NCBI GenBank assembly: GCA_002428525.1
Contig: DIWU01000030.1
Location: 42,009-106,008 of the forward strand
Direction: 5' to 3'
DNA length: 64,000 bases
Origin: a bacterium UBP14_UBA6098
Lineage (GTDB): Bacteria > UBP14 > UBA6098
A program made the position numbers and the translations under genes. Positions 14,295 through 49,018 of this stretch are shown here, one piece after another. The notes under the pieces were generated by a model, which was given only the letters and a program-made list of their open reading frames with translations, was not told the origin of the DNA and did not search any database. Position 1 is the first letter of the stretch, and each line of letters starts with the position of its first letter.

Positions 14295-14468
14295 GCGGGG
14301 CGTCGCGGCCCCTCCCGAAAGGCAAAATAATTGTCATTTCAAACTACAATCGCCGCGGCCTTTCGGGTCGGGGCCCTCGGCGAGCCGAGGTAAAATTGTC
14401 TTAAAAAGCAACCTGTTCTATCGGCTCGCCGACGACGACGCGCTCCCGCGCGTCGTGCGACGCCCCGC
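14295..14468. repeat. copy E (variant) of the GGGGCGTCG-TIR hairpin-rich intergenic element family
   Basis: Terminal inverted repeats GCGGGGCGTCGC (14295-14306) and GCGACGCCCCGC (14457-14468). The interior holds several imperfect palindromes (e.g. ggcccctcccgaaagg / cctttcgggtcggggcc). Intergenic, between two minus-strand genes. Confidence 0.4.
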
Positions 14469-14477
14469 GAGCTCGGT

Positions 14478-17132
14478 TTAGCGAAGTAGCACAGCGCGGG
14501 AGATAGCGCCGGAATTCTTTGCTCGAACGAAATAGACGCCTGAAGGAACGGGGCTATTCTCGAAGTCGCAACCATTCCACAACGACCCGCGGGAGCAGTC
14601 CTTTATTTCGTTGATAACTTTACCGGAAATATCCATTATCTCGACATCGCCTGCAGATTTAATCATGCAGGAGGCGTTGAAGGGATTCGGGGTTACAGAT
14701 ATCTGCATCTCATCCGGCAGATCGGCCTCCGAGATAGCCATGAGTTGCACGAAGACTTGCCAGCAATAGCTCGTGTCGTTCGGGCCGTAAAAATCGGGGT
14801 TATCGGCGAGATTAGCGCATATTATCACCTCGGAGCCGTCACCGAAGGAAGCCCCGAAGGCGCCGCTCTGAAGAACTACCGTATCACCGCGGGCGGTTAG
14901 GCCGGCAGTCGCCCTCTCTATCAGAGATAGCGAAAGGTCGAAGAACTCGAAGGAAACCCTTTCCGGCGAAACAAGCATACCGGCCGGCGCATCGGTGGCG
15001 ATTATCCAGACATCGTCGGTGCCAACATGGAGCGTGTCTCCGGCCCTCGGAGAGAAATCGCCCGAAACCGGCGGACGAAGATCGACCGCGAAGCTGAAGG
15101 CAAGCGGCGCATCGAGCCCTGAGCCGATCATATCCTCCACGCTAATCAGGTTTACTATTACAACTTGCTCGTGGGTGTAGGTCTCGAAGGGAGTGATAGT
15201 CAGCATCGAGTCCGCGAAGCTGAGCGCCGAACTCGGCCATGAATAAACCACCCCGCCGACTGAAACCTCGATCGAGCTAACATCGATTCCATCTGGATCG
15301 ACGATCTTAAGGACTATCTCGGGGTTCCCGCTCGCGACGACATCGCCCGCGCGCGGATGCATCGCCGAGGCGTTCGGCCCGCCGCTGGGATTCACAAAGA
15401 AATCCCAGCTTTCAATAGTGAAATTCGGATCGCAGACATCCGGCGAGTCCCCAACGCGAATTCGAACACTGTGCGTTCCGACCGTCGAGGCCGCAGTATC
15501 GGGCGAGATTCTCACAGTCCAACCGTCCCAGCTCAGATGGCTGTCCGGATAGCGCAATGTGTCGCCGTTGTAAACAACCATTAAGGTCGAGATATCTATT
15601 CCGGTGATTGCGTCCGTAAGGTTCGCCGAAATCGAGGCCGGAAACTCCGTCAGTATTTGGCCGCGACGGGGAATTAGGTTGTCGATAACCGGCGGAATTA
15701 AATCGGCCGTGAATGACCAGCTCACAGGCGACTCAATATGGTTTCCGAAATTATCCGCCACATCGACGAGGCTGACAACGATAGGCACTCCGCTCGGCCA
15801 ATCGGTCGAGGGGGTATATCGGAGCGTGTCGCCGAGGAAAACGATCGAGGAGCTGTATCCGTTGATCGTGTCCGTTCCGTTGAAAAAACGAACCGAGTAG
15901 GGATCGACGCCGTCGGTGTCTTGGACGAGAAGCTTTACCGGATAGCGGTTGCAGGAGGTGACAATCGATGGTGTTGGCTGAATTATCGTCACATCGGGCG
16001 CCCCCGAGGTAGTCATCGCGGGAATCCTCGTCGCGAATATATCCGAGGTGACATCGCGCGCATCCTCCCATATTATAAGGTGATGCTCGCCGTTACAAAC
16101 CGATCGCGGCTTCTGCTGAGTGCCGTCCGCTGTGGAAACCGCCAGCTCCGGCCCCATCAATGTCCCGCTCGTGGCCACCCTTTGCCCGTAAATATCGGAA
16201 AGAACATCCCGATTGTCCTGCCAAACAACAAGATAGCCCACGCCATCGAACGACACCGACGGCCGAACCTGATTGCCCTCGGCCGAGGAGATCGGGAAGG
16301 GAAGCCCGACCGGCGAGCCGGCTGAGTCCAGAAGTATTCCATATATATCTCTGCCGGTCGTCGCACCGGCGCGCTCGTATGCCACGAGATAACCCCCGCC
16401 GCCGTGAGCTATCGAGGCAAAACTCTCCTCTTGGGTGACATTGGTCACGGCGTAAATCCCCGTGGTATCGACTCCGCTGACTCCATAGCTCACCTTTTGC
16501 GCATAAAGGCCCTTGCCTCCCGCGAGCGAATCCTCGAAAACAACCACCCACTCGGAGGCACCCCGCGCGATCGCCGGGTTTTTCTCGTCACCGTCGGCAA
16601 GACCCATCTGCTTGGGAATCGTGGTGCTCCGGTCGTCCTCCGTGACTGCCAAGTAAATATCGCTGACCCCGAAAACCCGAACCTCCCAAACCACTAAAAA
16701 CGCCCCGGTCATACCGGAGATACGGACATTCTGAATCGTGCCGTCAACTGTGACTATAGCGAAATTGTCGAGGTAGAGCGAGCCGTCGGGGTTAACGAGA
16801 TTGCCATAGATCTGGTATCCGGTTCTGCGGTCGAACCAAGCGTCGAGGTAATAGGTGCCGCCCCATGCGACATCGGGGATTTTCTGAAGGCCGGTGAAGG
16901 CGCACGCCGGCGACTCAAGCCCCGGAAGACTGCCGTCGGCCGTCACAATTCGGCCGTAAATATTCGGATTGCCGGTTCCGGCCCGCGCATCCTCCCAAGT
17001 CGCGAAAAAATCGGTGCCGTCGGTGGCCACTGCAGGAACGATCTGCTGGCCGGCCGCAGTCGATATCGCAATATCCTGTCCAAAGGCAAACCCAACAAAT
17101 AGTATTAACAAAAAAACCGCCGCTGACCTCAT
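14478..17132 (-). CDS. large secreted repeat protein with T9SS C-terminal sorting domain (~884 aa)
   Basis: Signal peptide MRSAAVFLLILFVGFAFGQ. The Met at 17132 has an AAGGGAGAG RBS; the ORF track extends to 17165. C-terminus ISVTPNPFNASCMIKS...VEIMDISGKVI...SGVYFVRAKNSGAISRAVLLR is a T9SS CTD. Confidence 0.6.
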   Translation of the reverse strand: MRSAAVFLLILFVGFAFGQDIAISTAAGQQIVPAVATDGTDFFATWEDARAGTGNPNIYGRIVTADGSLPGLESPACAFTGLQKIPDVAWGGTYYLDAWFDRRTGYQIYGNLVNPDGSLYLDNFAIVTVDGTIQNVRISGMTGAFLVVWEVRVFGVSDIYLAVTEDDRSTTIPKQMGLADGDEKNPAIARGASEWVVVFEDSLAGGKGLYAQKVSYGVSGVDTTGIYAVTNVTQEESFASIAHGGGGYLVAYERAGATTGRDIYGILLDSAGSPVGLPFPISSAEGNQVRPSVSFDGVGYLVVWQDNRDVLSDIYGQRVATSGTLMGPELAVSTADGTQQKPRSVCNGEHHLIIWEDARDVTSDIFATRIPAMTTSGAPDVTIIQPTPSIVTSCNRYPVKLLVQDTDGVDPYSVRFFNGTDTINGYSSSIVFLGDTLRYTPSTDWPSGVPIVVSLVDVADNFGNHIESPVSWSFTADLIPPVIDNLIPRRGQILTEFPASISANLTDAITGIDISTLMVVYNGDTLRYPDSHLSWDGWTVRISPDTAASTVGTHSVRIRVGDSPDVCDPNFTIESWDFFVNPSGGPNASAMHPRAGDVVASGNPEIVLKIVDPDGIDVSSIEVSVGGVVYSWPSSALSFADSMLTITPFETYTHEQVVIVNLISVEDMIGSGLDAPLAFSFAVDLRPPVSGDFSPRAGDTLHVGTDDVWIIATDAPAGMLVSPERVSFEFFDLSLSLIERATAGLTARGDTVVLQSGAFGASFGDGSEVIICANLADNPDFYGPNDTSYCWQVFVQLMAISEADLPDEMQISVTPNPFNASCMIKSAGDVEIMDISGKVINEIKDCSRGSLWNGCDFENSPVPSGVYFVRAKNSGAISRAVLLR

Positions 17133-17379
17133 AATCTCTCCCTTTCTATTTCGTTTAGTTAACAAAATATACTCTCTCGAGCTAAATAATTCAACAAAAA
17201 ACCATCGTTTATAGTGCGATGGTTGTTATCTATCTTTTCCAAAGTTAGCTATAATCTACATCATATATTTGTGAAGTTTTTAAAAGAACATATTAGTCAT
17301 AGTAATTTTGTGGCTCAATAGCTATCTTGCCGACATATAAGTGATTACAAAAAAGTTACCGCGCAGTGAAATTCCCCTA

Positions 17380-17408: not shown

Positions 17409-17443
17409 CACCCGACTGTGAAATATTAAAACCGAGGATAGTT

Positions 17444-18919
17444 ATGCCAAATAATCTCGCCTTCGAACTCGATAATCCCCCGACCCACCCGGCCGACAAC
17501 CCGCGCCGCTCCCCCGAAGAGGCCGTCCTCGACCGCATCGGCCGAATCATCGTCAACCCGGACTTCGACCTCAAGGAGCTGAAAGACGCCGCCGATGTCC
17601 TAAAAAGGCTCGCCGAAACCCCTGAAACCGCGCTGAATTCGCGCCCGGAGCCCTTCTCGCCCTCGCTCTTCCCCCATCAGGCCGAGTTCGTCAAATCGCG
17701 CGCGCGTTTTTCGGCCTTCATCGGCGGCGTCCGAAGCGGGAAAACCTACTCCGGCACCGCAAAGGCACTCTCCCGCGCCTTCCTTCTGCCGACCGTCGGC
17801 GCCGCTGTCGCCCCGACGGTCGGTATGGCGCGCGATGTCCTCGTCCCGCAATATGCCGAGCTTGCCGCAAACCGAATCGCCAAATGGACATCCTCCACCG
17901 GCGATATGATATTGGACAACGGTAGCAAGATACTCTTCCGTAGCGCCGACAACCCCGAGCGGCTTATGGGCCTTACCCTCGACTGGTTCCACCTCGACGA
18001 GGCGGCCCAGCTTCCCCGCCGCGTTTGGGAGGTGCTCGTCAACCGCACAATCTCCACCGGCGGCCCGGGGTTTATTACAACCACTCCGCGCGGCAAAAAC
18101 TGGGTTTGGCGGCTGGTCGAGGAATGGCGCGACGACCCCGACGCCTCGGCCTTCTTCGCGAAAACCTCCGACAACCCGCTCATCGATTCGGCCGAGATCG
18201 ACCGCGCCCGTCGCCAGCTCGACTCGCGCTATTTCCGCCAACAATTCGAGGCCAGCTTCGAGGAGGAGGGCACGCGCGTCTATGAAGACTTCACCCCGCA
18301 ACTCCATGTCCTCGAAGAGTCTTGGCAGATTCGCGACAACTGGCCGATCTACATCGGTGTCGATTTCGGCTGGACGCACCCCTCCGCGCTCATCTGGGCA
18401 CAACTCTCGCCCGAGGGCAAATGGTTCATCTTCGACGAGCTTGTCGAACAGCACCTTCGCCTCGAACGCCTCGCCGCGGCGATCTTGGGCGATCCGGTCA
18501 CCCTCGCCGGCAGGACATTCCGCGCGCGCATTCCCTACTCGAAGGTCGAGCGCATCATCTCCGGCATCGAGGGCCTGCAGTCGAGACAGGAATCCGGCGG
18601 AGAGTCAGCGCTGTCGGCGCTTTCGAGCTTAGGAATCTCCCGCGCGGTCGCGGCGCGCTCCTCGATCTTGTCGGGGATAAACGCCGTCCGGGCAAAACTA
18701 CTCTCCGCAGACAGCGAGGTGAAACTCTTCGTCGATCCGCGATGCCGTCGCCTCATCGACGATTTCTCGGGCTACAAATACCCCGAGGATCGAAATAGCG
18801 AGCCGGATGGCGAGCTTCCCCTCAAGGACGGCATCCACGACCACACAATGGACGCCCTGCGCTACATGATCGAGTTCGTCACGCCGCTTCGCCAAACAGA
18901 CTGGCGGTTCGGATTCTAA
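17444..18919 (+). CDS. phage terminase large subunit (TerL)
   Basis: Walker A FIGGVRSGKTYSG, Walker B LDWFHLDEAAQ, and a C-terminal RNase-H-like nuclease motif DGIHDHTMDALRYMI. 491 aa. Confidence 0.85.
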   Translation: MPNNLAFELDNPPTHPADNPRRSPEEAVLDRIGRIIVNPDFDLKELKDAADVLKRLAETPETALNSRPEPFSPSLFPHQAEFVKSRARFSAFIGGVRSGKTYSGTAKALSRAFLLPTVGAAVAPTVGMARDVLVPQYAELAANRIAKWTSSTGDMILDNGSKILFRSADNPERLMGLTLDWFHLDEAAQLPRRVWEVLVNRTISTGGPGFITTTPRGKNWVWRLVEEWRDDPDASAFFAKTSDNPLIDSAEIDRARRQLDSRYFRQQFEASFEEEGTRVYEDFTPQLHVLEESWQIRDNWPIYIGVDFGWTHPSALIWAQLSPEGKWFIFDELVEQHLRLERLAAAILGDPVTLAGRTFRARIPYSKVERIISGIEGLQSRQESGGESALSALSSLGISRAVAARSSILSGINAVRAKLLSADSEVKLFVDPRCRRLIDDFSGYKYPEDRNSEPDGELPLKDGIHDHTMDALRYMIEFVTPLRQTDWRFGF

Positions 18920-19038
18920 TTTCCTCCCCTGAAGAGCGAGTTCAACAGCCCCGCACGGTTCGAACACTATTCTTCCGCGGACATGCAAAACTCAAATCGC
19001 GTTAGCTAAAAAAATTATCACTTTAAAAAAGGAGTGCG

Positions 19039-20460
19039 ATGATGCCAAAATCCCGCGCGGCCGAATGGGTCGAGAGGACCCTTTTAGCCGCTAAACTCGC
19101 CGTCCGAAAGGATTTCAAGGACGAGATCGCCAAACGGATCGACTATTACAACGATAGGCAGATCCCCTATCTGCTCGAGCTCCTCGAACAAAAATACCGC
19201 GATGCCGACGCCCTCGCGCTCGAGCCCGAGTTCGTCAATGTCATCAAGACCATCGTCGATGGAACCGCGCTGGTCTATCGCTCAGGCGCGGCGCGAGTCC
19301 TGACCGGCGGCTCCGGCGAGGTTTCGCCGGAGGAGAAAGCCCTTTGGGACTGGCTGATGTCCGCCTCGAATTACGAGGCGACGATGAAAACCGTCCACCG
19401 CATGGTCAAACTCTGCCGAACCGTGCTTGTCAAACCCTCATTCCGCGGCGGCCGAATCAAGTTCGATATACTGACCCCGGATCAGGTCGATATCGTCCAA
19501 GACCCGGAAGACCCGACCGAGGCGAGCGCGATTATATACACCCGCCCCCGCGCCGAGACGCTCTGCGCCGACGAGCTCGAGTTTCACTACTGGGACGCGG
19601 CGTCCTACCGCCGCTTCACCGCCGACGGCGTCATCCTCCGAAGCCCGAACAACCCAGAGGGCCTCAACCCCTACGGCGTTCTGCCCTTCGTTCGCTTCAC
19701 CGAAACGCTCCCGCTGTCGAGCTTCTTCGTCGATGCCGGCGAGGACCTCACAGTCGTGCAGGACGCAATCAACCTCAAGCTGGTTCAGCTGAACCATCTG
19801 CTGAAGATGCAGTCCTTCAGCGTGCCGGTGCTCATCGGCTACGACGGCAAGGAGAAGGTTGTCGTCGCGCCCGGGCGGCCGATATGCATCCCCCTCGGCC
19901 AGATCGGCGAGGGCAAGCCCGACTTCAAGTTCGTCTCACCGAACCCGGCAATCTCCGAGTGCCTCGAAGCGATCCGCGAGTCGATCGCGCGGCTCTCGAA
20001 CAGCTATCACATCAGCTCCGCGAGCTACTCTATCAGCGGAAGCCAAAAGAGCGGCTTCGCGCTGGTGATGGAGAACCTCGCCCTTTTCGAGGATCGCCAG
20101 AATGCAGTGCCCTTCTATGAGGACGCCGAGGAGCGGATGTTTGACCTTGTCAAGCAGATTTGGAACACGCACAGCGGCTCGCTTCCGGCCTCGCATCCCT
20201 TCGCGGGAAAGGTCTTCAGCCCGGCAACGCGCCTCTCCGTGACTATCCACGAAGCAAGACTCCCCCAGTCCGCCTCCGATGAGGCCGACGAATGGAAGTT
20301 CCTTATCGAAAACGGCATGGCAACGCCCATCGATTATATGATGATACGTTTTCAGATGACGCGCGAAGAGGCCGAGGCGAAATTCCGCGAGAACCTGCAA
20401 TGGCGCGAGGCAATCGCTTCGACACAAAACATTGACAAATCTCAGGAGGAGACCGAATGA
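19039..20460 (+). CDS. putative phage portal protein
   Basis: 473 aa acidic protein immediately after TerL and before a scaffold-like gene (conserved head-module order). No motif-level proof. Confidence 0.5.
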   Translation: MMPKSRAAEWVERTLLAAKLAVRKDFKDEIAKRIDYYNDRQIPYLLELLEQKYRDADALALEPEFVNVIKTIVDGTALVYRSGAARVLTGGSGEVSPEEKALWDWLMSASNYEATMKTVHRMVKLCRTVLVKPSFRGGRIKFDILTPDQVDIVQDPEDPTEASAIIYTRPRAETLCADELEFHYWDAASYRRFTADGVILRSPNNPEGLNPYGVLPFVRFTETLPLSSFFVDAGEDLTVVQDAINLKLVQLNHLLKMQSFSVPVLIGYDGKEKVVVAPGRPICIPLGQIGEGKPDFKFVSPNPAISECLEAIRESIARLSNSYHISSASYSISGSQKSGFALVMENLALFEDRQNAVPFYEDAEERMFDLVKQIWNTHSGSLPASHPFAGKVFSPATRLSVTIHEARLPQSASDEADEWKFLIENGMATPIDYMMIRFQMTREEAEAKFRENLQWREAIASTQNIDKSQEETE

Positions 20461-20951
20461 ACGAAGCCTTCGACACCCAAGATGACGATCAGATAATCGA
20501 CCAGCTTGCGGCCAATCCGCAGGACATCGCAAAGCTACTCGCCGCTAAGCGCAAGGCCAATGCCGAGGCCAAGCTCTTCCGCGAGCGCCTCGAGACCGCC
20601 GAGGAGGCCCTCAAAGAACGCGAAACCCTCTCCTCTGAAGTCGAGCGGCTTCGCGCGCGCGGCCTTCGCGACGCCTTCTTCATCGAGGCCCTGCAAGAGC
20701 GAATCAAGCCCAACCGCCTCGAAGCCGCCTTCAAGATCGCGGATTTAGACCTCACCGCGGAGGATCCCGCCACCACTGCCAAGGCCGCCCTCGGAAGGCT
20801 CAAGGAGGGCTTCCCCGAACTCTTCGCCGAGACGCCCCCGCCACCGGAGGTTGACAACGCGGGCTTCTCCCGCGCAAAGCCCGATCCGCTTACCGCCGCA
20901 AAGGCCTCCGGAAACACGATGGCCATGCTGAAGGCCCTTCGCTCGCAGTAA
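20457..20951 (+). CDS. putative phage scaffolding protein
   Basis: 164 aa, highly charged Ala/Glu/Arg/Lys-rich predicted coiled coil. Its start overlaps the portal stop (ATGA). Position between portal and capsid-like gene. Confidence 0.35.
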   Translation: MNEAFDTQDDDQIIDQLAANPQDIAKLLAAKRKANAEAKLFRERLETAEEALKERETLSSEVERLRARGLRDAFFIEALQERIKPNRLEAAFKIADLDLTAEDPATTAKAALGRLKEGFPELFAETPPPPEVDNAGFSRAKPDPLTAAKASGNTMAMLKALRSQ

Positions 20952-20965
20952 AACTACCCGCCCTC

Positions 20966-21109
20966 CCGTGGCGTCGGGATTTCTGCGCTCTCGGGAAAGC
21001 TCGCTTTCCCCGAGAGCCCAGAAATCGCCGGCCGGCCGGGCAAAAACACCGTTAATTCGGACATCGCCGCTCCGGCCGGACGGCCCGCGCATGCGCGGCC
21101 GACGCCCCC
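20966..21109. repeat. copy A of the GGGGGCGTCGG-TIR hairpin-rich element (MITE/REP-like), upstream of the capsid-like gene
   Basis: Left end ccgtgGCGTCGG (degenerate TIR), right end CCGACGCCCCC 21099-21109. Internal perfect palindrome gatttctgcgctctcgggaaagc / gctttccccgagagc.cagaaatc and a gcgcatgcgc palindrome. ~85% identical to copy B. Confidence 0.6.
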
Positions 21110-21150
21110 GGAAAGCGCCGTTCAACTAAAAAACCAACCGAAAGGAACAA

Positions 21151-22284
21151 ATGAACACATCATACGACTTCGCGAACCTCAAGCGCGACCTTGGGGAAAC
21201 CTTCGAGACGCTGTCAAAGGGCAGACACAACCTATTGTCGGTCATCCCGATTGTCGGGCAGGCCAAGAACTACAAGCACGAGTGGCTCGAGGATGTCATC
21301 GAGCCGACTATCGACGCCCTCGACGGCGCGGTCCTCGACACTGACCTTACTATCGATGTTGACAACGGCTCGAAGTTCGCGGTGGGCGACATCCTCGCCT
21401 TCGACGGCTATGACGAGGTCGTCCGCGTGACGGCAATCACCGACGACGCTCTGACGGTCTCCCGCGCCTATGGCGGCACCTCGGCGGTCGGCATGGCCGA
21501 TGACACCGTCGTCCGCGTCGTTTCGCGCCCCCGTTCGGAGGGAAGCGATCCGGGCTTCGACGCCGTAGCCGAGCCCTCGAGCGAGTTCAACTTCACGCAG
21601 ATTTTCGACCGGACGGCCAAGGTCTCGAAGTCCGCTGTAGCGGCCGAGCACCTCGCGATCGACGATCTCGTCGATTTCCATGTCAAGCACCACCTCGAGC
21701 TACTTCAGATCGAGATGAACGCCGCGGCGATCTACGGCCGCCGCTACGCCAACACCTCCGACGCCTCGATTCCGCGGACAATGGGCGGCATCCTCTACTT
21801 CCTCGATCAGGCCGGCGGGAATGTCATCGACAATTCCGCCGCGGCGCTTTCCGCCGAGGACCTGAACGACCTCATCGAGATGATCGCCGCAGATGGCGGC
21901 AGGCCGGACCTTCTCGTCTGCAACACGATTCAGGCGCGCGCTATCTCGGCCTTCAATGCCGAGTCCGGCTCGGCGCCCATTGTCAGAACCACTTGGTCGG
22001 ATGAGCGCACCGGCGGCGCGGTTTACGAGTTCGTCGGCGACCTGCCGCTCGGCATGGTCGAACGAATCGTCGTCGATACCGCCTTCCCGCAGGACAAGAT
22101 CGCCCTGCTCGACTCGTCGAAGCTCGCACTCGTGCCGCTCCGCGGGCGCGCCTTCCGCGACCTGCCCGCGACGCCCTCCGAGGCCTCGGACTACATCGCC
22201 CGCAGGATTATCGGCGAATACACCCTCGAGGTCAGAAACGCCGCCTTCGCGCACGGCCTCCTCAAGAACCTCGCTGTGAGCTAA
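21151..22284 (+). CDS. putative phage major capsid protein
   Basis: 377 aa, strong RBS, follows the scaffold-like gene. Size and position fit an HK97-fold major capsid protein. No direct motif confirmation. Confidence 0.45.
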   Translation: MNTSYDFANLKRDLGETFETLSKGRHNLLSVIPIVGQAKNYKHEWLEDVIEPTIDALDGAVLDTDLTIDVDNGSKFAVGDILAFDGYDEVVRVTAITDDALTVSRAYGGTSAVGMADDTVVRVVSRPRSEGSDPGFDAVAEPSSEFNFTQIFDRTAKVSKSAVAAEHLAIDDLVDFHVKHHLELLQIEMNAAAIYGRRYANTSDASIPRTMGGILYFLDQAGGNVIDNSAAALSAEDLNDLIEMIAADGGRPDLLVCNTIQARAISAFNAESGSAPIVRTTWSDERTGGAVYEFVGDLPLGMVERIVVDTAFPQDKIALLDSSKLALVPLRGRAFRDLPATPSEASDYIARRIIGEYTLEVRNAAFAHGLLKNLAVS

Positions 22285-22294
22285 GACTCCCCCC

Positions 22295-22437
22295 GGGGGC
22301 GTCGGGATTCCTGCGCTCTCGGGAAAGCGAGCTTTTCCGAGAGCGCAGAAATCGCCGGCCGGCCGGGCGAAAATCTCGCTCGATTCGGCCATCTCTGCTC
22401 CGGCCGGACGGCCCGCGCATGCGCGGCCGACGCCCCC
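22295..22437. repeat. copy B of the GGGGGCGTCGG-TIR hairpin-rich element, downstream of the capsid-like gene
   Basis: Perfect 11-bp TIRs GGGGGCGTCGG (22295-22305) and CCGACGCCCCC (22427-22437). Same internal palindromes as copy A, but the central loop is the reverse complement (gcgagc vs gctcgc). Confidence 0.6.
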
Positions 22438-22464
22438 TTGGCGTTCAACCGAAAAACACTTTGA

Positions 22465-22848
22465 ATGGAGAAAAAAATGGACTGGGAGAACTCGGTTTTA
22501 TTTGACATCAACGATTTGTATGACTTCGAGCCGGAGGTTTTGGAGTCGCTCGACCGCATCGACCGGCGCACAGCAGTTCGCGGGGTTTTGGCCTCGCGGA
22601 TTCGCAGGGCCTACAGCGGCCTCGGCGCGACGGACATTCTATCGCGGATAAAGAACCCCGAAGTTTTGCGCGAACCTTCGATTTTCCTCAACCTCTCGCT
22701 GGTTTTCAACGCCAATTCCACAATCGGCGGGATTTACGCGCAGAAGGCCTCGGACTATTCGGAGCGTTTCGAGGCCTCGATTCGCTCGGCGCTCGCCCTT
22801 CTCGAATTCGAGGGGCTGGAGAAGACCGGCGTCTTGATTGTCCGCTAA
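22465..22848 (+). CDS. hypothetical phage-cluster protein (127 aa)
   Basis: ORF with an AGGAG-like RBS directly after element B, co-oriented with the head genes. Candidate head-completion or connector protein by position only. Confidence 0.4.
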   Translation: MEKKMDWENSVLFDINDLYDFEPEVLESLDRIDRRTAVRGVLASRIRRAYSGLGATDILSRIKNPEVLREPSIFLNLSLVFNANSTIGGIYAQKASDYSERFEASIRSALALLEFEGLEKTGVLIVR

Positions 22849-22870
22849 CCCTTATTCAGAAAGGATTCCT

Positions 22871-23332
22871 ATGGAAAAATTGAATATCGACCGCGCTTTG
22901 GACGAGATTATATCCGGCTTCGGCGCACTCGACGACAGGAATAACAAGCTCGTCCAATCCTCGATTCGCGGATTTCGCCGTATGAGGGACATCGCCGTCT
23001 CGGAATACCCGATCGCTATGACCGGCCTCGTTTCGGCGGAAATTGGCCCGCAGGAGCATTTCTGCGAAGCGCTATCGGTTTTCCTGACCCGTGGTCGCGA
23101 GGCCGCCGAAAATTCGGCAAACCTCCGCGCCGCCCTTGTAGATCGCCTCTCCGAGGGTTGGGCGGATTTCGACATAACAAACATCGTCATCGGCGAGCTG
23201 TTCCCCGGTTTCACAGAGTCGGCCGAATCGGACGCCCTGCCCGAGGGGGCCTATCTCGCCTCATGGCTCGGAATCGAGCGGCCGATAGAGGGCTTTTATT
23301 TGGCATTCAACATCGCGCTGGACGCGGAATAG
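22871..23332 (+). CDS. hypothetical phage-cluster protein (~153 aa)
   Basis: The ORF track starts at 22838. The ATG at 22871 (MEKLNIDRAL) follows AGGATTCC and is the likelier start. No motifs. Confidence 0.4.
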   Translation: MEKLNIDRALDEIISGFGALDDRNNKLVQSSIRGFRRMRDIAVSEYPIAMTGLVSAEIGPQEHFCEALSVFLTRGREAAENSANLRAALVDRLSEGWADFDITNIVIGELFPGFTESAESDALPEGAYLASWLGIERPIEGFYLAFNIALDAE

Positions 23333-23341
23333 GAGATCAAA

Positions 23342-23650
23342 GTGAAATATTCCATATTAGTCTTCATGCTCGCGATCTCGCTCGTGGCATTTTGGGTCGA
23401 GATTCCCGCCGATTCGGCGCGCACACTCTCCGCCCCCGACTCGACAGGCACCTTCCCGATCGACTCGACAGCCGTTTTCGTTTCCGATACCTCGCTGAAC
23501 GGACTTGTCCGCCCCGCGGTAATTATCTCTTTCTCGAAAGGCATCCCGTATCTGCTCCAAGAACTGGGCTATTGCGCGCCTCCGGACTCTTCGCGCCGCT
23601 TTTTCGCCCTTTGCTCGGAGGCCGAAAGGTGGTTCCAATGGCAAGAATAA
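23342..23650 (+). CDS. small secreted/membrane-anchored hypothetical protein (102 aa, GTG start)
   Basis: N-terminal hydrophobic segment ILVFMLAISLVAFWV. Overlaps the next gene's start by 13 nt. Confidence 0.35.
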   Translation: MKYSILVFMLAISLVAFWVEIPADSARTLSAPDSTGTFPIDSTAVFVSDTSLNGLVRPAVIISFSKGIPYLLQELGYCAPPDSSRRFFALCSEAERWFQWQE

Positions 23651-24900: not shown

Positions 24901-25658
24901 AATATTTAGTTTTTTTACTGTTTTTCGTTGCGGCAGTCTTCGGATTTATATATCCAATAACTGTCGATCTCGTGGGGTCTGATGGGCGAACTGTCGCGGC
25001 CGATTCAGCCTTCTGCACAGTCCTCGCAAATAGCGAAACACTCCTCACGCCGACCCGTATGTCATCTGTCGCTCGATCGACTACCATCGACTTCGATTTT
25101 CCCGAAACCTTGTGGTTCGCAACAGCGATCATTTCCGCTTTCTGGGAGGATACGCTTTTCGATACTGTAGCATTTACTATACCATCAGCCACAAACCCCT
25201 TTATGTTGACATCCATGCTATCCAATACACTCTCGGAAGCCCATGGTTCCGGTTTATGGCAATCTAAAGCAATACTCCCATTCTTGTTGACAATGGAAGA
25301 GAATGAGATTGTTGCTACGTTATCAGGGAGTTCCTCAAGGCCTATCTCTGTAATCAGAGGTGATAGTAAATGTGTGGATATTTATCTTGTCGATTCTTCA
25401 GGCGAAGCCATTGATATTACCGGTGCATCTGCCGTCTTCACAGTAAAGCAACGAGCAAGCGATATTACTGCGTATATCGTTGACACGCTCGAACTCATAG
25501 AGCCGGCAGAGGGTTTTCTCCGACTCGATCTAAATCCGCTACAAACATCGATCGTTCCTCAGAGCTATTCGGCAGATATTCAACTTTCTTTCCCAGATAG
25601 CTCAATTGCAACGGTTTGGCAAAATCGTTTCATTGTCCAATGGGATGTAACCCGCTAA
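24897..25658 (+). CDS. secreted hypothetical protein with Ig-like C-terminal region (253 aa)
   Basis: N-terminal signal/anchor MKYLVFLLFFVAAVFGF. Its start overlaps the previous stop (ATGA). Low-GC coding sequence. Confidence 0.45.
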   Translation: MKYLVFLLFFVAAVFGFIYPITVDLVGSDGRTVAADSAFCTVLANSETLLTPTRMSSVARSTTIDFDFPETLWFATAIISAFWEDTLFDTVAFTIPSATNPFMLTSMLSNTLSEAHGSGLWQSKAILPFLLTMEENEIVATLSGSSSRPISVIRGDSKCVDIYLVDSSGEAIDITGASAVFTVKQRASDITAYIVDTLELIEPAEGFLRLDLNPLQTSIVPQSYSADIQLSFPDSSIATVWQNRFIVQWDVTR

Positions 25659-25673
25659 CAAACAGGATTGATC

Positions 25674-25910
25674 ATGTCCGACGAATATCGCAATATCTTT
25701 TGGAAACTCGCGCCAATCGCCCTTTCCGTCTTTCTCGCACTAATCGGAATCGTCTGGGGAATGACATACGCCGAACTTCATTCACGAGTTAACCGTATGG
25801 ACGACATAATCTTAACACAAAAGGAGGCTATTGTTCGCATCGAAGCAAAACTCGATATAATCCTCGAAAGCAATGTCAACCGAAAGGAATTACAATGCAA
25901 AACGTATTAA
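25674..25910 (+). CDS. small single-TM protein, holin-like (78 aa)
   Basis: One hydrophobic helix (LAPIALSVFLALIGIVWGM) followed by a charged tail. ATG at 25674 with an AGGA RBS; the ORF track starts at a TTG at 25668. Lies immediately upstream of a second small TM protein and a lysin. Confidence 0.4.
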   Translation: MSDEYRNIFWKLAPIALSVFLALIGIVWGMTYAELHSRVNRMDDIILTQKEAIVRIEAKLDIILESNVNRKELQCKTY

Positions 25911-28813: not shown

Positions 28814-28814
28814 T

Positions 28815-35614: not shown

Positions 35615-35779
35615 CGCGCGGGGGGGCGTCGGCCTCCTTCGGAGGCACGACGGGCCGGAAGACGATCTCGCATTGTGGAACATCCTCGTTCCGGCCCGTC
35701 GTCTGCTTCGCGCCCCGAATTGATCTCGTTAACTCAGCTATTTTTATACGGGGCGCGAAGCGCGACGCCCCCCCGCGGG
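35615..35779. repeat. copy C of the GGGGGCGTCGG-TIR hairpin-rich element
   Basis: Left cgcgcgGGGGGGCGTCGG (35615-35632) and right CGACGCCCCCCCgcggg (35763-35779) terminal inverted repeats. Internal palindromes gcctccttcggaggc, gacgggccggaa...ttccggcccgtc, and cttcgcgccccg...cggggcgcgaag. Confidence 0.5.
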
Positions 35780-38900: not shown

Positions 38901-40350
38901 CGACATAGAACGTCCAGCTGAGTGCCGAATGCCTAAGCGGATTGGCCTCGCAAACCTCGACGGAGTCCCAAACATTCCAAACCGTCACGGTGATCGTGTC
39001 GCCCTGAAGCCAGTTGACACCGGCGAGCGCGGGATAATAGGTCATCGTGAGGCCGTCCCAAGTGATCTCGGGGGTTGTCACTGCGTTCCAACTGACGTAT
39101 TCGATATACTCGCCGCCGGTGGTCGTGATGATGAAGTGGACGGTCGAAGGATCGACTGCGCCCCAAACATCGGTCATGTCCCAGCTGATGGGCTCTTGGA
39201 GATCCCTTGTCACAAATGCACTCGGCGGAACCGGATTGAAGACCGACGGGCCGGTGTTGTCGAAGCGAATCTTCCACGAGGTCCACGGATAGGCGCCGAA
39301 ATGCCAACCACTGGCGATATTGCCATGGATGTCGGTGACATAAGGCGGATAAATCGTGTAAACCGTGCCCTCATACCACTGGGGGTTCGGCGTGAAGGTA
39401 AACAGGGCCTCGGTGACGACGACATCGGTTTCAACAAGATAGGAATCGAGCGTGTCAACGACAATGCGATAGTTGCCCCAGTTGTAGCGGGTCGAATTGA
39501 CCATAATGTAGAAAGAGGACAGATCGATTCCGTTCTCGTCGGCGATGCGCCATGTGAGAGGCATATCGGAACAACCGGTCCAAAGAATATCACGCATGAA
39601 GGGGATCGGCTCGACGGGATAGCACTCGGGGCCGTCCGCGTCAACCCGGAAACCGAACTCGGGGCCGAGAGGCGCGATATTGGGAACGCCATAGTGCGGC
39701 GCATCCTGAGCGCCGGCCAATTGAACCGTCACCCAGTCGTTCTCGTCCCAAGCGATTCCCGCGATCGCGGGATCGAACTCGAAGAGATAGCCGCCGGCAA
39801 CCTCGGTGAGTGTGACGCCGACAGAGGCCTCGGTATAATCGACGCCCTTGATTTTGACGATAATACTGGCCGGATCGATAACACCGAACTCATCGACGAT
39901 AGTCATCGAGATCGGCTCGAGAACATTCGTCGTCACAATCGGCTCGAGCTCGTCGATCGCGCCGGGGGTGCGCGCGCTCATGAACGGCGCCGAAAGATCG
40001 ACAATGAATGTCGTGGCGAGAGGCGTTCCGGCAATCGGGTTGCCGTCGAGGTCGTTCGCCGCGAGGCTGAGGGTGTGCACACCCTCTGTCCAAACCGCCG
40101 GAGCGGTGAAGACGAGGTTGACGGGCGACCAAACGAGGTCTCCGCCGATTGTGTAGCCGGCGCCATCGACATCGAGGGCCACCGACGCTTGGTTGACATT
40201 AGCGGGCGCGCTAAAGACGTAGGATACGAGCTGGTTTGGAACCGAAGTCGTAAGACCGTCGATAGGCTGGGTAATAGCAACTCCTTGGGCTACGAGAGCA
40301 CCAACACCAAGGAGCAACATTAAAAACACTGCTGTAGCGTGCTTACGCAT
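35908..40350 (-). CDS. giant secreted Ig-like/adhesin-like repeat protein with T9SS C-terminal sorting domain (1480 aa)
   Basis: Signal peptide MRKHATAVFLMLLLGVGALVAQG. Long series of ~90-100 aa Ig-like repeats. C-terminus APNPFNAACAISFDIPTDSKVNLEVFDMMGRKISTVV...SGVYFYRMTAGEFKAGGRMVLVR is a T9SS CTD. Confidence 0.65.
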   Translation of the reverse strand: MRKHATAVFLMLLLGVGALVAQGVAITQPIDGLTTSVPNQLVSYVFSAPANVNQASVALDVDGAGYTIGGDLVWSPVNLVFTAPAVWTEGVHTLSLAANDLDGNPIAGTPLATTFIVDLSAPFMSARTPGAIDELEPIVTTNVLEPISMTIVDEFGVIDPASIIVKIKGVDYTEASVGVTLTEVAGGYLFEFDPAIAGIAWDENDWVTVQLAGAQDAPHYGVPNIAPLGPEFGFRVDADGPECYPVEPIPFMRDILWTGCSDMPLTWRIADENGIDLSSFYIMVNSTRYNWGNYRIVVDTLDSYLVETDVVVTEALFTFTPNPQWYEGTVYTIYPPYVTDIHGNIASGWHFGAYPWTSWKIRFDNTGPSVFNPVPPSAFVTRDLQEPISWDMTDVWGAVDPSTVHFIITTTGGEYIEYVSWNAVTTPEITWDGLTMTYYPALAGVNWLQGDTITVTVWNVWDSVEVCEANPLRHSALSWTFYVADGPMPINMVPGINEFTGCQAPQIAFQLIDPDGINPTTVLFQVEDVVFDVNYNIVTIETVAVIGGIAITETTEVFPFYEDITLPGRFVLDMALVPPTILALYDAQEVNCVILSAEDWLGAPMWGGAFSWRFWMDFSGPFAGPTYPEDGGITGGPYPIFSIDVLDAVCGMIDPNGVNVQLRGVNFNPLVDPGVFWEDIPGGGRITIDTEIEGFYYAHGATVDVCLTAAYDNPQNRCTLWGNPGVGLPYCWSFTVDNHVPAVAIVEPVDMSISACPRQPIVIQVTDDFGIDPSMFRMTVNHIVYDWGNPRLTWDGTNLTFTPTSDYPEGLVTWALNRVSDVAGNMSDDTPLTGGFYADYSAPAILWTSPENGSTAIVSPEFIMIGTDDIAGLDPALTQFTVDVYTDEETFVRHIVDEATFPGVFAWDPDLGELWLDLAIAGIDFDFTTYRVAVEVSTADAPDYACPDPNFLPVYQFDFFVNPGWKVDVEFWGDETTMVDIYSFGSFFGATAEFDAGLDELLPPFPPTVTPLAFLTPVEGTPLRQDYLGLDTDTWSWTLYTGSQSGCIRWNPADLPALGSFVINDVVDMRGSAEYCFGPGEAIVINVTRRVMILTAGWNLVSVPVEPVDPTIAAVFPMVNAADVWEYTGGTPPYVHPEIVRPGRAYMVLYTPGPEADDPIYFTIPGTPIMEYTVTLNKGWNTIGSVYDFGGVSILDPNDTPDGSCEPIVYYLDPMTGSYAFSDVIVAGYGYWNFVDPPAPFTTAQLNVAVSYGGAPRAIPTEVIEPEWTTKMTFSGDAVREIVIGGHKDATVEYERGLDMPIPPAVPGATFDVYIEGTKFGRMVKDIRNSDGWTIVVSALSPVEMSWEGQAPEGLVLEGMGIEIVLSGEGKVTLNPGIYTAKRRIEVPTDFALRGAAPNPFNAACAISFDIPTDSKVNLEVFDMMGRKISTVVNDNFTPGTHRVVWNGNDDFGREVSSGVYFYRMTAGEFKAGGRMVLVR

Positions 40351-40563: not shown

Positions 40564-40581
40564 CTCGCCCAAGCTTATATT

Positions 40582-45866: not shown

Positions 45867-46812
45867 AGGATTCCCTTTCCTGTTTTAAAAATTCAACAAC
45901 TTCGCCCGCATTCTCGAGCTTGAAGGCCCCCGCGCGAATCGCCTTACTGCGCGCCATGCCCTTAGTGAACCATCCGACGAATTTCCGGGCGATCGTTCCG
46001 GCACGCGTGTCGCCGTAAAAGGCGGCCATATCGGCGACATAGTCGGCGCAGGCCGTCAAGCGATCGAAGTCGCTCGGGGCAGAGGGGCTGTCCCCGCCGA
46101 GGATAGCGCTCGACACCTCGGCGAAGACCCATGGGTTTCCGAGCGAGGCTCTGCCGATCATCACCGCGGCGCAACCGGTCGATTCGATCATTCGAAGGGC
46201 GGCCCGGCCGGAATCGATATCGCCGTTTCCGACGATCGGGACAGAGGAGATCTGGACGGCGCGAGCGATCATATCCCAATCGGCGGTGCCGGAGAAGCCC
46301 TGTTTTCGGCTTCTCGCGTGCAAAGTAATGAAGGAGGCGCCGGCATCTACGAGGCGCGGGATAGCCTCCTCGAAGGCCGAGTGGTCGTCGATTCCGGTGC
46401 GGATCTTCGCGCTGACGGGGATTGAAACCGCGGAAACAACCGCGGCGACGAGTTCCGCGGCCTTTTGCGGGTCGGATAAAAGCGAGACACCCGCCCCCTT
46501 TCGGAAAACCTTCTTTGCAGGGCATCCGAGGTTGACATCGATAAGCCCGAAACCACTGTCTTGGACTATTTTCGCGGCCTCGGACATAGCAATCGGATCG
46601 TCGTCGAAGAGCTGAATCCCCAGCGGCGCGACCGACTTGTCAAAATCGAGTAAGGATAGTGTTTTAGGGGCTTTGCGCCTCAGTCCCTCGGCCGAGACCA
46701 TACCGCTGAAGACCAAACCTGCGCCATGGCGAAGAGCCCAAGCGCAAAATACGGAATCCGAGATTCCGGCGAGCGGCGCCGAAAGGGTTTTGTTTTTAGG
46801 AAGAGCTTGCAT
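45856..46812 (-). CDS. tRNA-dihydrouridine synthase (Dus family)
   Basis: TIM-barrel flavoenzyme motifs, including LAGISD near the N-terminus, NLGCP, and ITLHARSRKQGFSGTADWD with the catalytic Cys/Lys region. Confidence 0.8.
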   Translation of the reverse strand: MQALPKNKTLSAPLAGISDSVFCAWALRHGAGLVFSGMVSAEGLRRKAPKTLSLLDFDKSVAPLGIQLFDDDPIAMSEAAKIVQDSGFGLIDVNLGCPAKKVFRKGAGVSLLSDPQKAAELVAAVVSAVSIPVSAKIRTGIDDHSAFEEAIPRLVDAGASFITLHARSRKQGFSGTADWDMIARAVQISSVPIVGNGDIDSGRAALRMIESTGCAAVMIGRASLGNPWVFAEVSSAILGGDSPSAPSDFDRLTACADYVADMAAFYGDTRAGTIARKFVGWFTKGMARSKAIRAGAFKLENAGEVVEFLKQERESYAS

Positions 46813-48787
46813 CTATGCCGGACGAAAGGATTTTTTTAAGATGATCTATCCTTTTCTCGAAACGGTCTCTTTCATTCGGCTCGGCAGTTTTCTGCAGGAT
46901 GGCCTTGTAGATTGAGATTGCCCTCTTGATCTTGCCTTGGCCGACGCAAATCTCGGCGAAGGTAACGGTATTCATATCCTGCCCGTCGGCGAAGTCGGAG
47001 GCGTCTTCGCCCTGCGGCTCCTCCGCGGGTTCGGCGGCCTCACCGAGAGCGCCGTTTTCCCCTCGTGGAACGATTCCGTCGAGCTCGTCGGCGAACTCTA
47101 TCTCGGTGAACTCGGGGCTGGAAAGTTTCTCGGAGGGCGGGTTGAATGACGCCGTTCCCTCGAAGCCCTCGATCTCGAGAGGTTCCTGAGCGGGTTTAAA
47201 CTCGTGGCGAAACTCGATTCCAATATCATCAACAGCCGGCGAAGGGTTTTCTTGACCGATATCCTCAGTGAAGAAATAGCCGCCGATGCTTGTAATATCG
47301 GCTTTCGGCTTTTCGGGAGCGCCGATATCGAAAACCGGTATATCGTCGGCGGTGATCTTTTCTTGCTCGATCTCGCCCCGGGGGGCCGGAGCGGGAGTTT
47401 TAGCCTCCCCTGTAGGCGTAGCGGCTACTTGGGGCTCGGGGGAAACCTCCGGCTCCTCGACTACCTCGAGCTGTTTGAGGGCATCGGCCATACTTGTGGG
47501 TTTTACCGTCGGAGCCTTTTGCCGTGGAGGCGGAGTGAAGTCGAAGAAGTCATCCGGGACGGCATCGACGGCCTTGGACGGCTCCTCCTTTTGAACAACA
47601 GCCGGCTCCTCTTTCGAGGGCGGAGTGAAATCGAAGCCGTCTTCTAACGCCGAACTATCGGGGGCTTCGGGGGGCGCGACCGCTCGACTTGCTTCGGGAG
47701 GCGCTTTTATATTGGTTTGGGACGAGGGTGGAGTGAAATCGAAATCTTCATCGGCCCTATCATAGATATCAAATGCGGGCATATCCTCCGCGGTAACCGC
47801 CTGCTCCTCGACGGGCGTTTCGATTAGCGGCGCGGGCGCGGTTTGCGTGGTTTCTTCGAGATTGAAAGATCCGAACCCCTCGGAAAGGTCGGGTTCCTCG
47901 ACTGCAGCCGGAGGAGGCTGAACCTTAGGAGTTGTCGGTGCGGGCGCGGCGGAGAATGCTCCCAAATCGAACTCGGGCATCGATTCTTCGATCGAGGAAA
48001 CAGCCGACTCGAGCAGGCTTTCAGAGGCCTTCTTCGCTGAGGCTATCTCGGGCGAAACGAAGTCCCTCTTCGACTCGATCCCCGCCTCGCTCTCCTCTTC
48101 CTCCTCGATAGGCTCGAAAACGCTCTCCGGCGCTAAAAGCCCCTCCTCCGAGGACATCTGGTCCATGTCGAAACCGCCGGAGGTGTCCTCGCCCGAGATG
48201 TCCATCTTAAGTAGCTCTTCGAGCTCCTTTTCGACAGAGGTAATCTCGTCGATCGTGGGGGCGGAGCGTTTTTCGATTCCGTTGAAAACGATCTCCGACT
48301 TCTGAGGCGGAGCCGGTGTGGCGGCCTTTTGCTCTATGGCCTCGGTCGGTTTGGCCTGCATCGCGGGCAGGGTTTGTTCCGAAACCTCGACATTGAGGTT
48401 CTTCAGCTCCCGCTTCGCCTTCTCGTCGAAGGGGTCCAAGGACAGAAGTCCCTTCAGCCGCTCGATTCCATCCTTGGTGTTGCCCTGCTTGAATTCTATC
48501 CTCGCGATCTCCCAAATAGCGGCAACATTGCCCGGATCTATCCTGAGCACTATATCGAAACGGTCGCGGGCCTCCTTGAAATAGCCCGCCTTCAAAAGCG
48601 CGCGCGCCAAGACCTGTTGGCCGGTGACATAGGTGGGGTTCGCGCTCACCCCGGCGGTGAGGATCTCGAGCGCTTTGCGAAGATCGCCCCTCTGCAAATA
48701 AATATCACCAAGCCGCGCGAACCTTGGATCGCCCGGCTTTTCGGCAACAAACGCCGAAAACATGGTGACTAATTGCTCATCATTCAT
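46796..48787 (-). CDS. TPR-repeat protein with a ~400-aa acidic, Pro/Glu/Ala-rich low-complexity linker carrying repeated F-D-F-T-P-P motifs
   Basis: N-terminal TPR helices (GDIYLQRGDLRKALEIL..., ARALLKAGYFKEARDRF...). Central disordered region with three (D/F)FDFTPP(S/P) repeats and related (I/M)P.FD(I/L) motifs. C-terminal TPR-like helix ISIYKAILQK. Confidence 0.5.
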   Translation of the reverse strand: MNDEQLVTMFSAFVAEKPGDPRFARLGDIYLQRGDLRKALEILTAGVSANPTYVTGQQVLARALLKAGYFKEARDRFDIVLRIDPGNVAAIWEIARIEFKQGNTKDGIERLKGLLSLDPFDEKAKRELKNLNVEVSEQTLPAMQAKPTEAIEQKAATPAPPQKSEIVFNGIEKRSAPTIDEITSVEKELEELLKMDISGEDTSGGFDMDQMSSEEGLLAPESVFEPIEEEEESEAGIESKRDFVSPEIASAKKASESLLESAVSSIEESMPEFDLGAFSAAPAPTTPKVQPPPAAVEEPDLSEGFGSFNLEETTQTAPAPLIETPVEEQAVTAEDMPAFDIYDRADEDFDFTPPSSQTNIKAPPEASRAVAPPEAPDSSALEDGFDFTPPSKEEPAVVQKEEPSKAVDAVPDDFFDFTPPPRQKAPTVKPTSMADALKQLEVVEEPEVSPEPQVAATPTGEAKTPAPAPRGEIEQEKITADDIPVFDIGAPEKPKADITSIGGYFFTEDIGQENPSPAVDDIGIEFRHEFKPAQEPLEIEGFEGTASFNPPSEKLSSPEFTEIEFADELDGIVPRGENGALGEAAEPAEEPQGEDASDFADGQDMNTVTFAEICVGQGKIKRAISIYKAILQKTAEPNERDRFEKRIDHLKKILSSGIDASSS

Positions 48788-48892
48788 TGTCAGAATCCGC
48801 CATTATTTATTCAAAATAGATACTTTCTTCAATTTGTCAAGCCCGGTGTTCTCCCCACAAAACTATCGCTATTCACAAAAACACCTCGCCCG

Positions 48893-49018
48893 GGGGGCGT
48901 CGGACGCGCTTCGCGCGTGACGCGCGGCCGGATGAAAAAGCTCCAATTTCAATCGGAAAACTACCTTCCGGCCGCACGGCGATCTCTTTTCCAGAGGAAA
49001 AGAGATCCCGACGCCCCC
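48893..49018. repeat. copy D of the GGGGGCGTCGG-TIR hairpin-rich element
   Basis: Perfect TIRs GGGGGCGTCGG (48893-48903) and CCGACGCCCCC (49008-49018), extended to cgcccgGGGGGCGTCGG / CCGACGCCCCCcggcg. Internal perfect palindrome gatctcttttcc-aga-ggaaaagagatc and ccggcc/ggccgg pairs. Confidence 0.5.

Follow-up and report, generated by a model that had tools for sequence, protein, structure and literature searches.

What are the hairpin-rich elements that recur between the genes of a bacterium, and how did they come to be there? The question is raised by a stretch of 64,000 nucleotides (henceforth the window) from the bacterium UBP14_UBA6098 (assembly GCA_002428525.1, contig DIWU01000030.1, positions 42,009 to 106,008 of the forward strand). 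A preliminary description, made from the letters alone, had reported five such elements in it as a structured family with conserved ends and hairpin interiors, and had offered as explanations miniature inverted-repeat transposable elements (MITEs), repeats like the repetitive extragenic palindromes (REPs) and bacterial interspersed mosaic elements (BIMEs), or RNA structures. We find all five in place with the ends reported for them, the left end of one (c2) being a variant, and we add a sixth, so that the window holds six copies, called c1 to c6 (Table 1). They belong to a real and previously undescribed repeat family, on which a full-text literature search returned nothing. To the explanation that we favour we give about an even chance: the copies would form a non-autonomous, structure-dependent family of palindromic repeats in Zixibacteria, nearest to BIMEs and to REPINs (REP doublets forming hairpins), that is moved in trans.

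Conserved ends and a common branched fold

Members of the family are about 130-175 bp long and are bounded by an 11-nt terminal inverted repeat (TIR), GGGGGCGTCGG at one end and CCGACGCCCCC at the other, outside which lie less conserved arms. Within the window the 9-mer GGGGCGTCG occurs exactly 11 times. Nine of these occurrences are ends of c1 to c5, the left end of c2 having the variant GTGGCGTCG instead, and the other two are isolated and lie within genes, which is about the chance expectation. In several copies (c1, c5) the inverted repeats run past the G5 core.

Folded as a single strand with DNA parameters, all six window copies are predicted to adopt the same four-way junction, in which a terminal stem encloses three hairpins with essentially no unpaired bases. 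Compared with dinucleotide shuffles, the z-scores of the folds are -6.6 for c6, -7.5 for c2, -7.6 for c3, -9.1 for c5, -9.8 for c1 and -10.8 for c4, and for c1 to c5 none of 200 shuffles was equally stable. The structured family of the preliminary description is thus borne out, with one three-hairpin junction common to all copies. Since the 11-mer ends close the junction without unpaired bases, each end amounts to a conserved 11-mer that directly abuts a hairpin, and such pairing of the ends is possible only within a single strand.

Likeness of the interior sequence is restricted to c2 and c3, which share two gapless segments of 77% and 87% identity, and whose similarity begins about 25 nt before the TIR (at 20942 and 22270, respectively). 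The other window copies have ends and architecture in common, and not the interior sequence. In all six copies the - strand gives the more stable predicted fold, by 2-8 kcal/mol and independently of the orientation of element or gene, which may reflect a strand-biased G/T composition tied to the direction of replication. Chance GC-rich palindromes are ruled out by the fold z-scores, by covariance-model scores and by dozens of relatives.

Relatives in other genomes and covariation of the hairpins

The preliminary description had held the ends to be distinctive enough for a genome-wide search, and such a search indeed yields many more copies. In a scan of 185,579 species, each represented by one genome, GGGGGCGTCGG and CCGACGCCCCC occurred 100-130 nt apart at 71 loci. 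Of these, 33 loci with 36 copies are in one metagenome-assembled genome (MAG), Candidatus Zixiibacteriota SpSt-1142, which is the sole genome with many copies among those scanned. The remaining matches are mostly single, unstructured and in high-GC genomes, and most single matches outside SpSt-1142 are due to chance; one locus (L044) is an additional three-hairpin member. A scan of metagenomes found the same SpSt-1142 population again (OMKS01, Ga0129302) as well as members in a Zixibacteria-like genome, Ga0272443, and further members are present on the metagenomic Zixibacteria-like contigs L118, L105, L148 and L142. With dozens of copies in related genomes, the outcome that would have told against a family, namely no more copies and five unrelated palindromes, did not occur. 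The window itself aligns syntenically with SpSt-1142 contigs over several kb at 67-75% identity, and the closest named homologues of a capsid protein encoded in it come from 'candidate division Zixibacteria'. Viral contigs gave 0 matches to the exact pattern, and none was found to encode a relative of the capsid protein, so we reject a phage-borne element.

The 36 copies in SpSt-1142 are about 129 nt long, lie in both contig orientations and align in the order TIR, hairpin A, hairpin B, short hairpin C, TIR. Hairpin A is formed by CCyyyCCTGCGATTT and AAATCGCAGGrrrGG, and hairpin B by AGCGAAGTAGTCGG and CCGACTACTTCGCT around a loop of about 35 nt. RNAalifold predicts 45 pairs for this alignment, of which the 12 pairs of the TIR are essentially unvarying. 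The compensatory changes that a covariance model had been proposed to reveal are present: both sides have changed with pairing kept in 20 of the 45 pairs, and one pair is CG in 12 copies, UA in 11, AU in 9 and GC in 2. Only five cells of the alignment are G-U. Covariation that is confined to Watson-Crick pairs, with G-U nearly absent, agrees with a constraint that acts on DNA or else on both strands. Outside the 11-mer, the two flanks form another, weaker inverted repeat, about 24 nt long, with the consensus GATTTTCnnnATAGCACGCTCG directly before GGGGG. The outer arms in Ga0272443 are unlike those of SpSt-1142 in sequence, and therefore only the 11-mer is common across genomes. A covariance model (CM) built from the SpSt-1142 copies only recovers c1 to c5 in the window (scores in Table 1).

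Open reading frames (ORFs) predicted across the SpSt-1142 copies are of low complexity and arginine-rich, and we judge them to be spurious; for annotation, the family accounts for several puzzling 'ORFs' that cross repeats. We also noticed long single-hairpin palindromes that start with GGGGGCGTCGG and end with CCGACGCCCCC. They lie on the Gemmatimonadota- and Binatia-named contigs L029, L034, L036 and L065, and on L083 and L084 from the metagenome scan. The 11-mer may mark related palindromic repeats beyond Zixibacteria, or the search pattern itself may have selected for such palindromes.

Gain, loss and persistence of copies

An SU10-type capsid gene has c2 on one side and c3 on the other. 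It belongs to a cluster of about 9.5 kb that runs from terminase, portal and capsid genes to a transglycosylase gene. The same cluster is found in four other Zixibacteria genomes (L149 to L152, capsid identity 72-84%), and both elements are absent from all four. This presence/absence polymorphism between related genomes is a gain in one lineage, and the family was thus mobile. At the c2 site, the closest relative, L149, has a hairpin that consists of the closing stem only, GGGAGGCGTCA-CGAAAATTC-TGACGCCCCCC. At the c3 site L149 has a G6C/GC6 hairpin, and L150 to L152 have a simple hairpin of G and C runs. The simplest reading is that the insertion preceded the split between the window and L149, and that the interior was then lost in L149. 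We also considered that the 11-mer stem is an independent host hairpin into which the interior was targeted, and rejected this idea: the stem-only hairpin in L149 is the only one in about 420 kb, which makes a deletion derivative more likely.

Copies can also last. Both c4 and an SpSt-1142 copy on L057 (737-864) occupy the same gap between orthologous convergent genes, where a neighbouring gene is about 71% identical. The two copies have opposite orientations, so either the interior flipped between its own TIRs or two independent insertions took place in the same gap. Long persistence is thus seen at syntenic sites, as it is inside a gene (see below).

Several further observations concern these neighbourhoods. 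The phage-like head-tail cluster of the window (17444-26832) encodes a large terminase, an SPP1-type portal, the SU10-type major capsid protein, small ORFs and an SLT transglycosylase, with no adjacent genes for integrase, replication or lysis regulation. At least four further Zixibacteria genomes have its gene order, between different host flanks, and in one of them host genes separate terminase from portal. It has the look of a particle cluster (of the gene transfer agent type) that is inherited vertically and possibly domesticated, and not that of an active prophage. On L118, two near-identical copies in direct orientation (900-1053 and 2158-2311) bracket a 329-aa lipoprotein-like ORF, much as c2 and c3 enclose the capsid gene. 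In two relatives, a copy is located immediately upstream of a gene orthologous to the PD40-repeat gene of the window (6833-7882), at 13114-13281 of L148 and 6486-6615 of L063. The corresponding region of the window (7883-8036) contains no copy, and the copy in L148 is at a breakpoint of gene order relative to the window.

A copy inside a coding region

The copies had been described as strictly intergenic, which does not hold for c6. This copy lies in frame within ORF 9287-11212(+), antisense to that gene, and the covariance model matches it at 10980-11117 with 59.6 bits (E 1.5e-10), a score level with those of c3 and c5. The product of the ORF has LVIVD repeats and a C-terminal sorting domain of the type IX secretion system (T9SS), as detected with Pfam and NCBIfam, and the translated element forms the middle of this sorting domain (SPPGVGASNARYEATEIEIFDIHGRLVTGRLVTNSAEALLGPTPT). 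An orthologue on L142, with 57% amino-acid identity, has an element at the same place (69 bits).

Comparison of these two copies separates conservation of the fold from conservation of the protein. There is no difference in the TIR or in hairpin C; in hairpins A and B, eight double compensatory changes separate the two. Pairing is kept in 98.7% of cells, versus 29-49% when the partners are slid. The compensatory changes alter the protein (YEAT...TGRLV versus SGQV...ADLPV). Identity at third codon positions is 0.67 in the codons of the element and 0.46 in the rest of the gene, and amino-acid identity is 0.51 in the element, lower than the 0.57 elsewhere. The pair is a natural experiment, in which retention of the DNA fold overrode retention of amino acids at 57% identity, and it gives a direct handle on whether the structure is selected or merely corrects itself. 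Both G-T wobbles of c6 are on the strand that is not the mRNA.

The element was not found in more distant orthologues of the gene, which still hold the beta-strand DNA that constitutes the loop of hairpin B in c6. In still others, the two loops of the domain in question are occupied by other GC-rich hairpins. The loops flank the conserved IFD..GR.V strand, and their hairpins differ between genomes (window 10943-11152; L146 4066-4311; L148 11666-11911; L145 5666-5854). An example is found in L146, where GTAGGG-(hairpin)-(GGGCGACGC AG GCGTCGCCC)-CTAC makes up a small three-way junction. These loops of the C-terminal domain (CTD) seem to be a hot spot for the in-frame accretion of palindromes. 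Two related ideas were tried and rejected. Copies c1, c4 and c6 are at or in genes for T9SS-sorted proteins; in SpSt-1142, however, two of 19 adjacent genes fit a loose CTD pattern, one of them encoding a real CTD, against a background of 6/213. An origin of the family from CTD-coding DNA was suggested by peptide likenesses of translated intergenic copies to the c6 peptide. It is unsupported, because nhmmer finds no significant similarity for the loop of the middle hairpin (E 0.5-0.8), and because the likenesses at the DNA level and at the peptide level are in different frames.

Orientation and relation to transcription

With respect to the flanking genes, copies in SpSt-1142 are oriented randomly (four sense, four antisense, six in convergent gaps and six in divergent gaps). 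The window has four copies in co-directional gaps, all of them sense, besides c4 in a convergent gap and the antisense c6. Many copies lie 5-50 nt past stop codons. However, c4 is flanked by two separate canonical intrinsic terminators that belong to the neighbouring genes, and several SpSt-1142 copies likewise follow a separate terminator. A T run follows the outer stem only in c4, and the copies thus do not have the make-up of intrinsic terminators.

Searches with Rfam 15 gave no match at gathering scores, and none overlapping any copy at E <= 5, which excludes a known RNA family. We also rejected a strand-specific RNA function, since the sense bias of the window is not seen in SpSt-1142 (four versus four, plus six divergent) and the asymmetry in minimum free energy does not track the gene strand. 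Thus, the random orientation, the separate terminators around c4, the greater stability on the - strand, the Rfam result and the Watson-Crick-only covariation together argue against a strand-specific RNA role. They fit pairing in single-stranded DNA, or in RNA made from both strands.

Search for a mobilizing enzyme and for target-site duplications

The preliminary description had suggested a cognate transposase, of the IS200/IS605 or the tyrosine type, and none came to light. Among essentially all ORFs of the window (about 58), Pfam detected no IS200/IS605-type transposase, no REP-associated tyrosine transposase (RAYT) and no other transposase. No RAYT- or IS200-like gene was detected in 1.23 Mb of loci that include about 4 kb on each side of the 36 SpSt-1142 copies, in a search (a regular expression for the RAYT motif, and tblastn with IS200/YafM queries) that is insensitive and was applied to incomplete MAGs and contigs. 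Within about 4 kb of the SpSt-1142 copies there are also no multi-copy ORFs and, by the same crude search, no HUH/Y1-like ORFs. The sole tyrosine recombinase of the window (51612-52451) is XerD-like, scoring 319 bits for XerD, close to the equivalog cutoff, and 111 bits with the integron integrase model, whose cutoff is 265. Among the copies there are no cassette arrays and no integron-type core sites.

Two cases of flanking direct repeats in one genome are suggestive; otherwise such repeats do not exceed the control frequency. Of 44 copies, 8 are flanked symmetrically by direct repeats of 7 nt or more, compared with 9.5% in a control with mismatched flanks, and these repeats have no common length; several of the eight cases are explained by a palindromic motif in the flanks. 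This lack of a consistent target-site duplication weakens the classical MITE reading.

Nature of the family

Among known systems, the family is closest to REPINs, whose spacers vary in sequence yet always form hairpins between paired, conserved inverted ends (PMC3337134), and which, like REPs, are mobilized by RAYTs in Pseudomonas and Enterobacteria (Bertels and Rainey, PMC3116915, PMC3337134). Like REPINs, the elements described here are short and non-coding, with inverted conserved ends that pair in a single strand and with variable interiors that form hairpins. They likewise occur in tens to hundreds of copies that are mostly extragenic, long-lived and vertically inherited, with no obvious target duplication and no internal transposase. 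Unlike in REPINs, the conserved unit is an 11-mer that abuts a hairpin, with no GTAG-type motif demonstrated, the host belongs to Zixibacteria, and one copy is in frame within a gene. In REPIN systems the RAYT is normally flanked by REPINs, whereas no RAYT was found near the approximately 42 copies considered here. Because of the branched fold, the lack of a demonstrated RAYT and the conserved in-frame copy, we call the family REPIN/BIME-like and do not file it as REPIN.

Other repeats resemble it in single respects. BIMEs of E. coli and BOX elements of Streptococcus pneumoniae are modular, multi-hairpin intergenic repeats, and in BOX a variable middle is enclosed by complementary end modules. 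Neither is related to the present family in sequence, and variation in the latter is limited to the hairpin sequences, with a fixed order of modules and a fixed, perfect junction. The Correia/NEMIS MITEs of Neisseria are similar in length (100-200 bp), TIRs, insertion polymorphism and location next to genes; unlike them, the present family has no consistent target duplication and no known parent insertion sequence (IS), and its termini are poorly conserved while its core is invariant and its interior covaries. Rickettsia palindromic elements (RPEs) are located in frame within genes and are translated, a behaviour that c6 and its orthologue share. However, the sequence family and the host are unrelated, most copies are intergenic here, and the loop of the middle hairpin of c6 is ancestral coding DNA that is present in orthologues lacking the element. 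Finally, the R''/R' core sites of integron attC (RYYYAAC / GTTRRRY) are not present in the ends, which are GGGGGCGTCGG/CCGACGCCCCC.

Under the favoured reading, a protein acting in trans, and encoded elsewhere than near the copies, would recognize the 11-mer and the adjacent hairpin in single-stranded DNA. It would copy or move the element without target duplications, as HUH/RAYT-type enzymes do for REPs and REPINs. The copies would then be long-lived and vertically inherited, and their hairpins would stay paired through selection or through hairpin-templated correction. What the data show are the family itself, the common fold, the covariation, the gain in one lineage, the long persistence at syntenic sites and within a gene, the random orientation and the lack of a transposase nearby; an intermediate of single-stranded DNA, the type of enzyme and a benefit to the host, if any, are what we infer. 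Several points count against this reading. A REPIN is one long hairpin without a fixed 11-mer closing stem, whereas the present fold is a four-way junction. No RAYT- or IS200-like gene was seen in the window or near the SpSt-1142 copies. Compensatory changes are also possible without selection, through template switching in quasi-palindromes. Copies conserved at syntenic sites and within a gene are a hint of some host function, which a purely selfish model leaves unexplained. Finally, two or three copies in another genome have flanking direct repeats of 8-10 nt (L118a AATATTTG, L105 AATCGCAC), which would fit a cut-and-paste (DDE) transposase.

Those direct repeats belong to the case for a classical MITE, i.e. 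a deletion derivative of an IS with a DDE transposase, cut and pasted through its TIRs, in which the interior hairpins would be incidental. The length of the inverted repeats (the 11-nt core plus 15-25 nt of outer arm, or about 26-35 nt), the insertion polymorphism around the capsid gene and the homogeneous population in SpSt-1142, which suggests a recent burst, would all suit such an element. What makes it unlikely in our view is that target duplication is inconsistent, that conservation is lowest in the outermost arm and complete in the inner 11-mer, the reverse of usual DDE ends, and that neither a transposase nor a multi-copy ORF lies near the copies. Moreover, the interior hairpins are maintained by compensatory changes, even within a gene, and copies last at syntenic sites. 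Of the options in the preliminary description, the MITE is thus weakened by the lack of a target duplication, and the terminator or other RNA by random orientation, copies at divergent promoters, the terminators around c4 and Watson-Crick-only covariation; the REP/BIME-like (REPIN-like) option is the best supported of the three.

We think it quite unlikely that the copies are functional structured RNAs or cis-acting mRNA elements, such as 3' stabilizers, processing sites or terminators that might, for example, raise the level of capsid mRNA relative to its neighbours. Many copies do closely follow stop codons, but c4 lies past the terminators of both its neighbours. The sense orientation of all four window copies in co-directional gaps (4/4) is not repeated in SpSt-1142, where sense and antisense copies are equal in number and six are in divergent gaps, which contain promoters. 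The bracketing of the capsid gene by c2 and c3, the G/C hairpins of relatives at the c3 position and the closing-stem hairpin of L149 at the c2 site would suit such a role, as would the strong covariation; G-U intermediates, however, are nearly absent, the - strand is more stable in all six copies regardless of the gene strand, and Rfam gives nothing even at E <= 5. In addition, c6 runs antisense to its gene, as does its orthologue, and both wobbles of c6 are on the non-mRNA strand. Alternatively, the copies could be a host DNA signal that is read in folded or single-stranded form, such as a site for recombination, replication priming or a nucleoid protein, with the junction as a possible substrate of, for example, an Xer-type recombinase. 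The perfect junction, an 11-mer that is invariant across genera while interiors have diverged, the Watson-Crick-only covariation and retention of the element in a gene despite amino-acid change are all compatible with this, as are the mutual inversion of c4 and its syntenic counterpart and the copy at a rearrangement breakpoint in L148. Even so, we regard it as very unlikely, given that copy number and sequence homogeneity vary greatly between genomes, that copies are gained and lost, and that no cassette arrays, integron-type core sites or dedicated recombinase were found, the sole recombinase being XerD-like. In a more specific form, a host-maintained signal would consist of a single-stranded four-way junction read by a dedicated protein specific for GGGGGCGTCGG; this we hold to be rather improbable. 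If it were true, the fold would be held at syntenic sites in different genera as well as within a gene, in the latter by compensation that changes amino acids. The family would then be a signal of a new class, made of structured DNA (or of RNA from two strands), in a phylum that is uncultured, and it might relate to recombination and inversion or to expression of the capsid cluster.

A trans-mobilized, REPIN/BIME-like family would extend the REP/REPIN-type phenomenon to Zixibacteria, an uncultured phylum, with an unusually well-defined shape of an invariant 11-bp closing stem and three hairpins. To our knowledge, REP/REPIN-type structured repeats have been studied almost only in Proteobacteria. 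The invariant 11-mer could be used as bait for the protein that recognizes it.

Copies in the window and their neighbours

The window copies (Table 1) are spaced 1.3-13 kb apart amid housekeeping genes. The hairpins of c1 comprise two with A/T-rich loops of about 30 nt and one with a stem of 9-10 bp. Around c5, weaker similarity of the arms extends to approximately 48859-49050.

Table 1. Copies of the repeat family in the window, with their ends, covariance-model scores and locations
Copy	Position	Strand	Ends and core	CM score	Location
c1	14283..14476	-	core 14295-14468; TIR variant GCGGGGCGTCGC/GCGACGCCCCGC; outer inverted repeat CCGAGC/GCTCGG at 14283-14288 and 14471-14476	40.9 bits on -, 30.5 on +	entire gap from gene 12899-14281(-) to the stop of T9SS-CTD protein gene 14478-17165(-)
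c2	20966..21109	+	left end GTGGCGTCGG, right end CCGACGCCCCC	42.3 bits	between 164-aa gene (20457-20951) and SU10-type major capsid gene
c3	22295..22437	+	exact ends GGGGGCGTCGG / CCGACGCCCCC	60.4 bits	between capsid gene (21151-22284) and following gene (22465-22848)
c4	35615..35779	-	TIR GGGGGGGCGTCGG (35620-35632) / CGACGCCCCCCC (35763-35774)	52.3 bits on -	convergent gap between gene 34683-35534(+) and gene 35908-40350(-)
c5	48884..49026	-	core 48892-49019 (GGGGGGCGTCGG / CCGACGCCCCCC); outer inverted repeat CCTCGCC/GGCGAGG at 48884-48890 and 49020-49026	63.4 bits on -	between gene 46796-48787(-) and GWxTD-domain gene 49065-50402(-)
c6	10985..11112	-	TIR CGGCGTCGGC (10987-10996) / GCCGACGCCG (11101-11110); three hairpins intact	see text	see text

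Three features of the region around c5 may be added. The XerD-like tyrosine recombinase gene, 51612-52451(-), appears to be co-transcribed with two GWxTD-domain genes (50399-51610 and 49065-50402), and c5 is just downstream of this group. On the other side of c5, the TPR-protein gene 46796-48787 contains a 30-nt direct repeat three times (47525-47752, with spacings of 90 and 108 nt), which probably encodes a repeated protein module. Further along the window, positions 53467-55032 contain a type II restriction-modification pair, consisting of an EcoO109I-family endonuclease and an N6/N4 DNA methylase.

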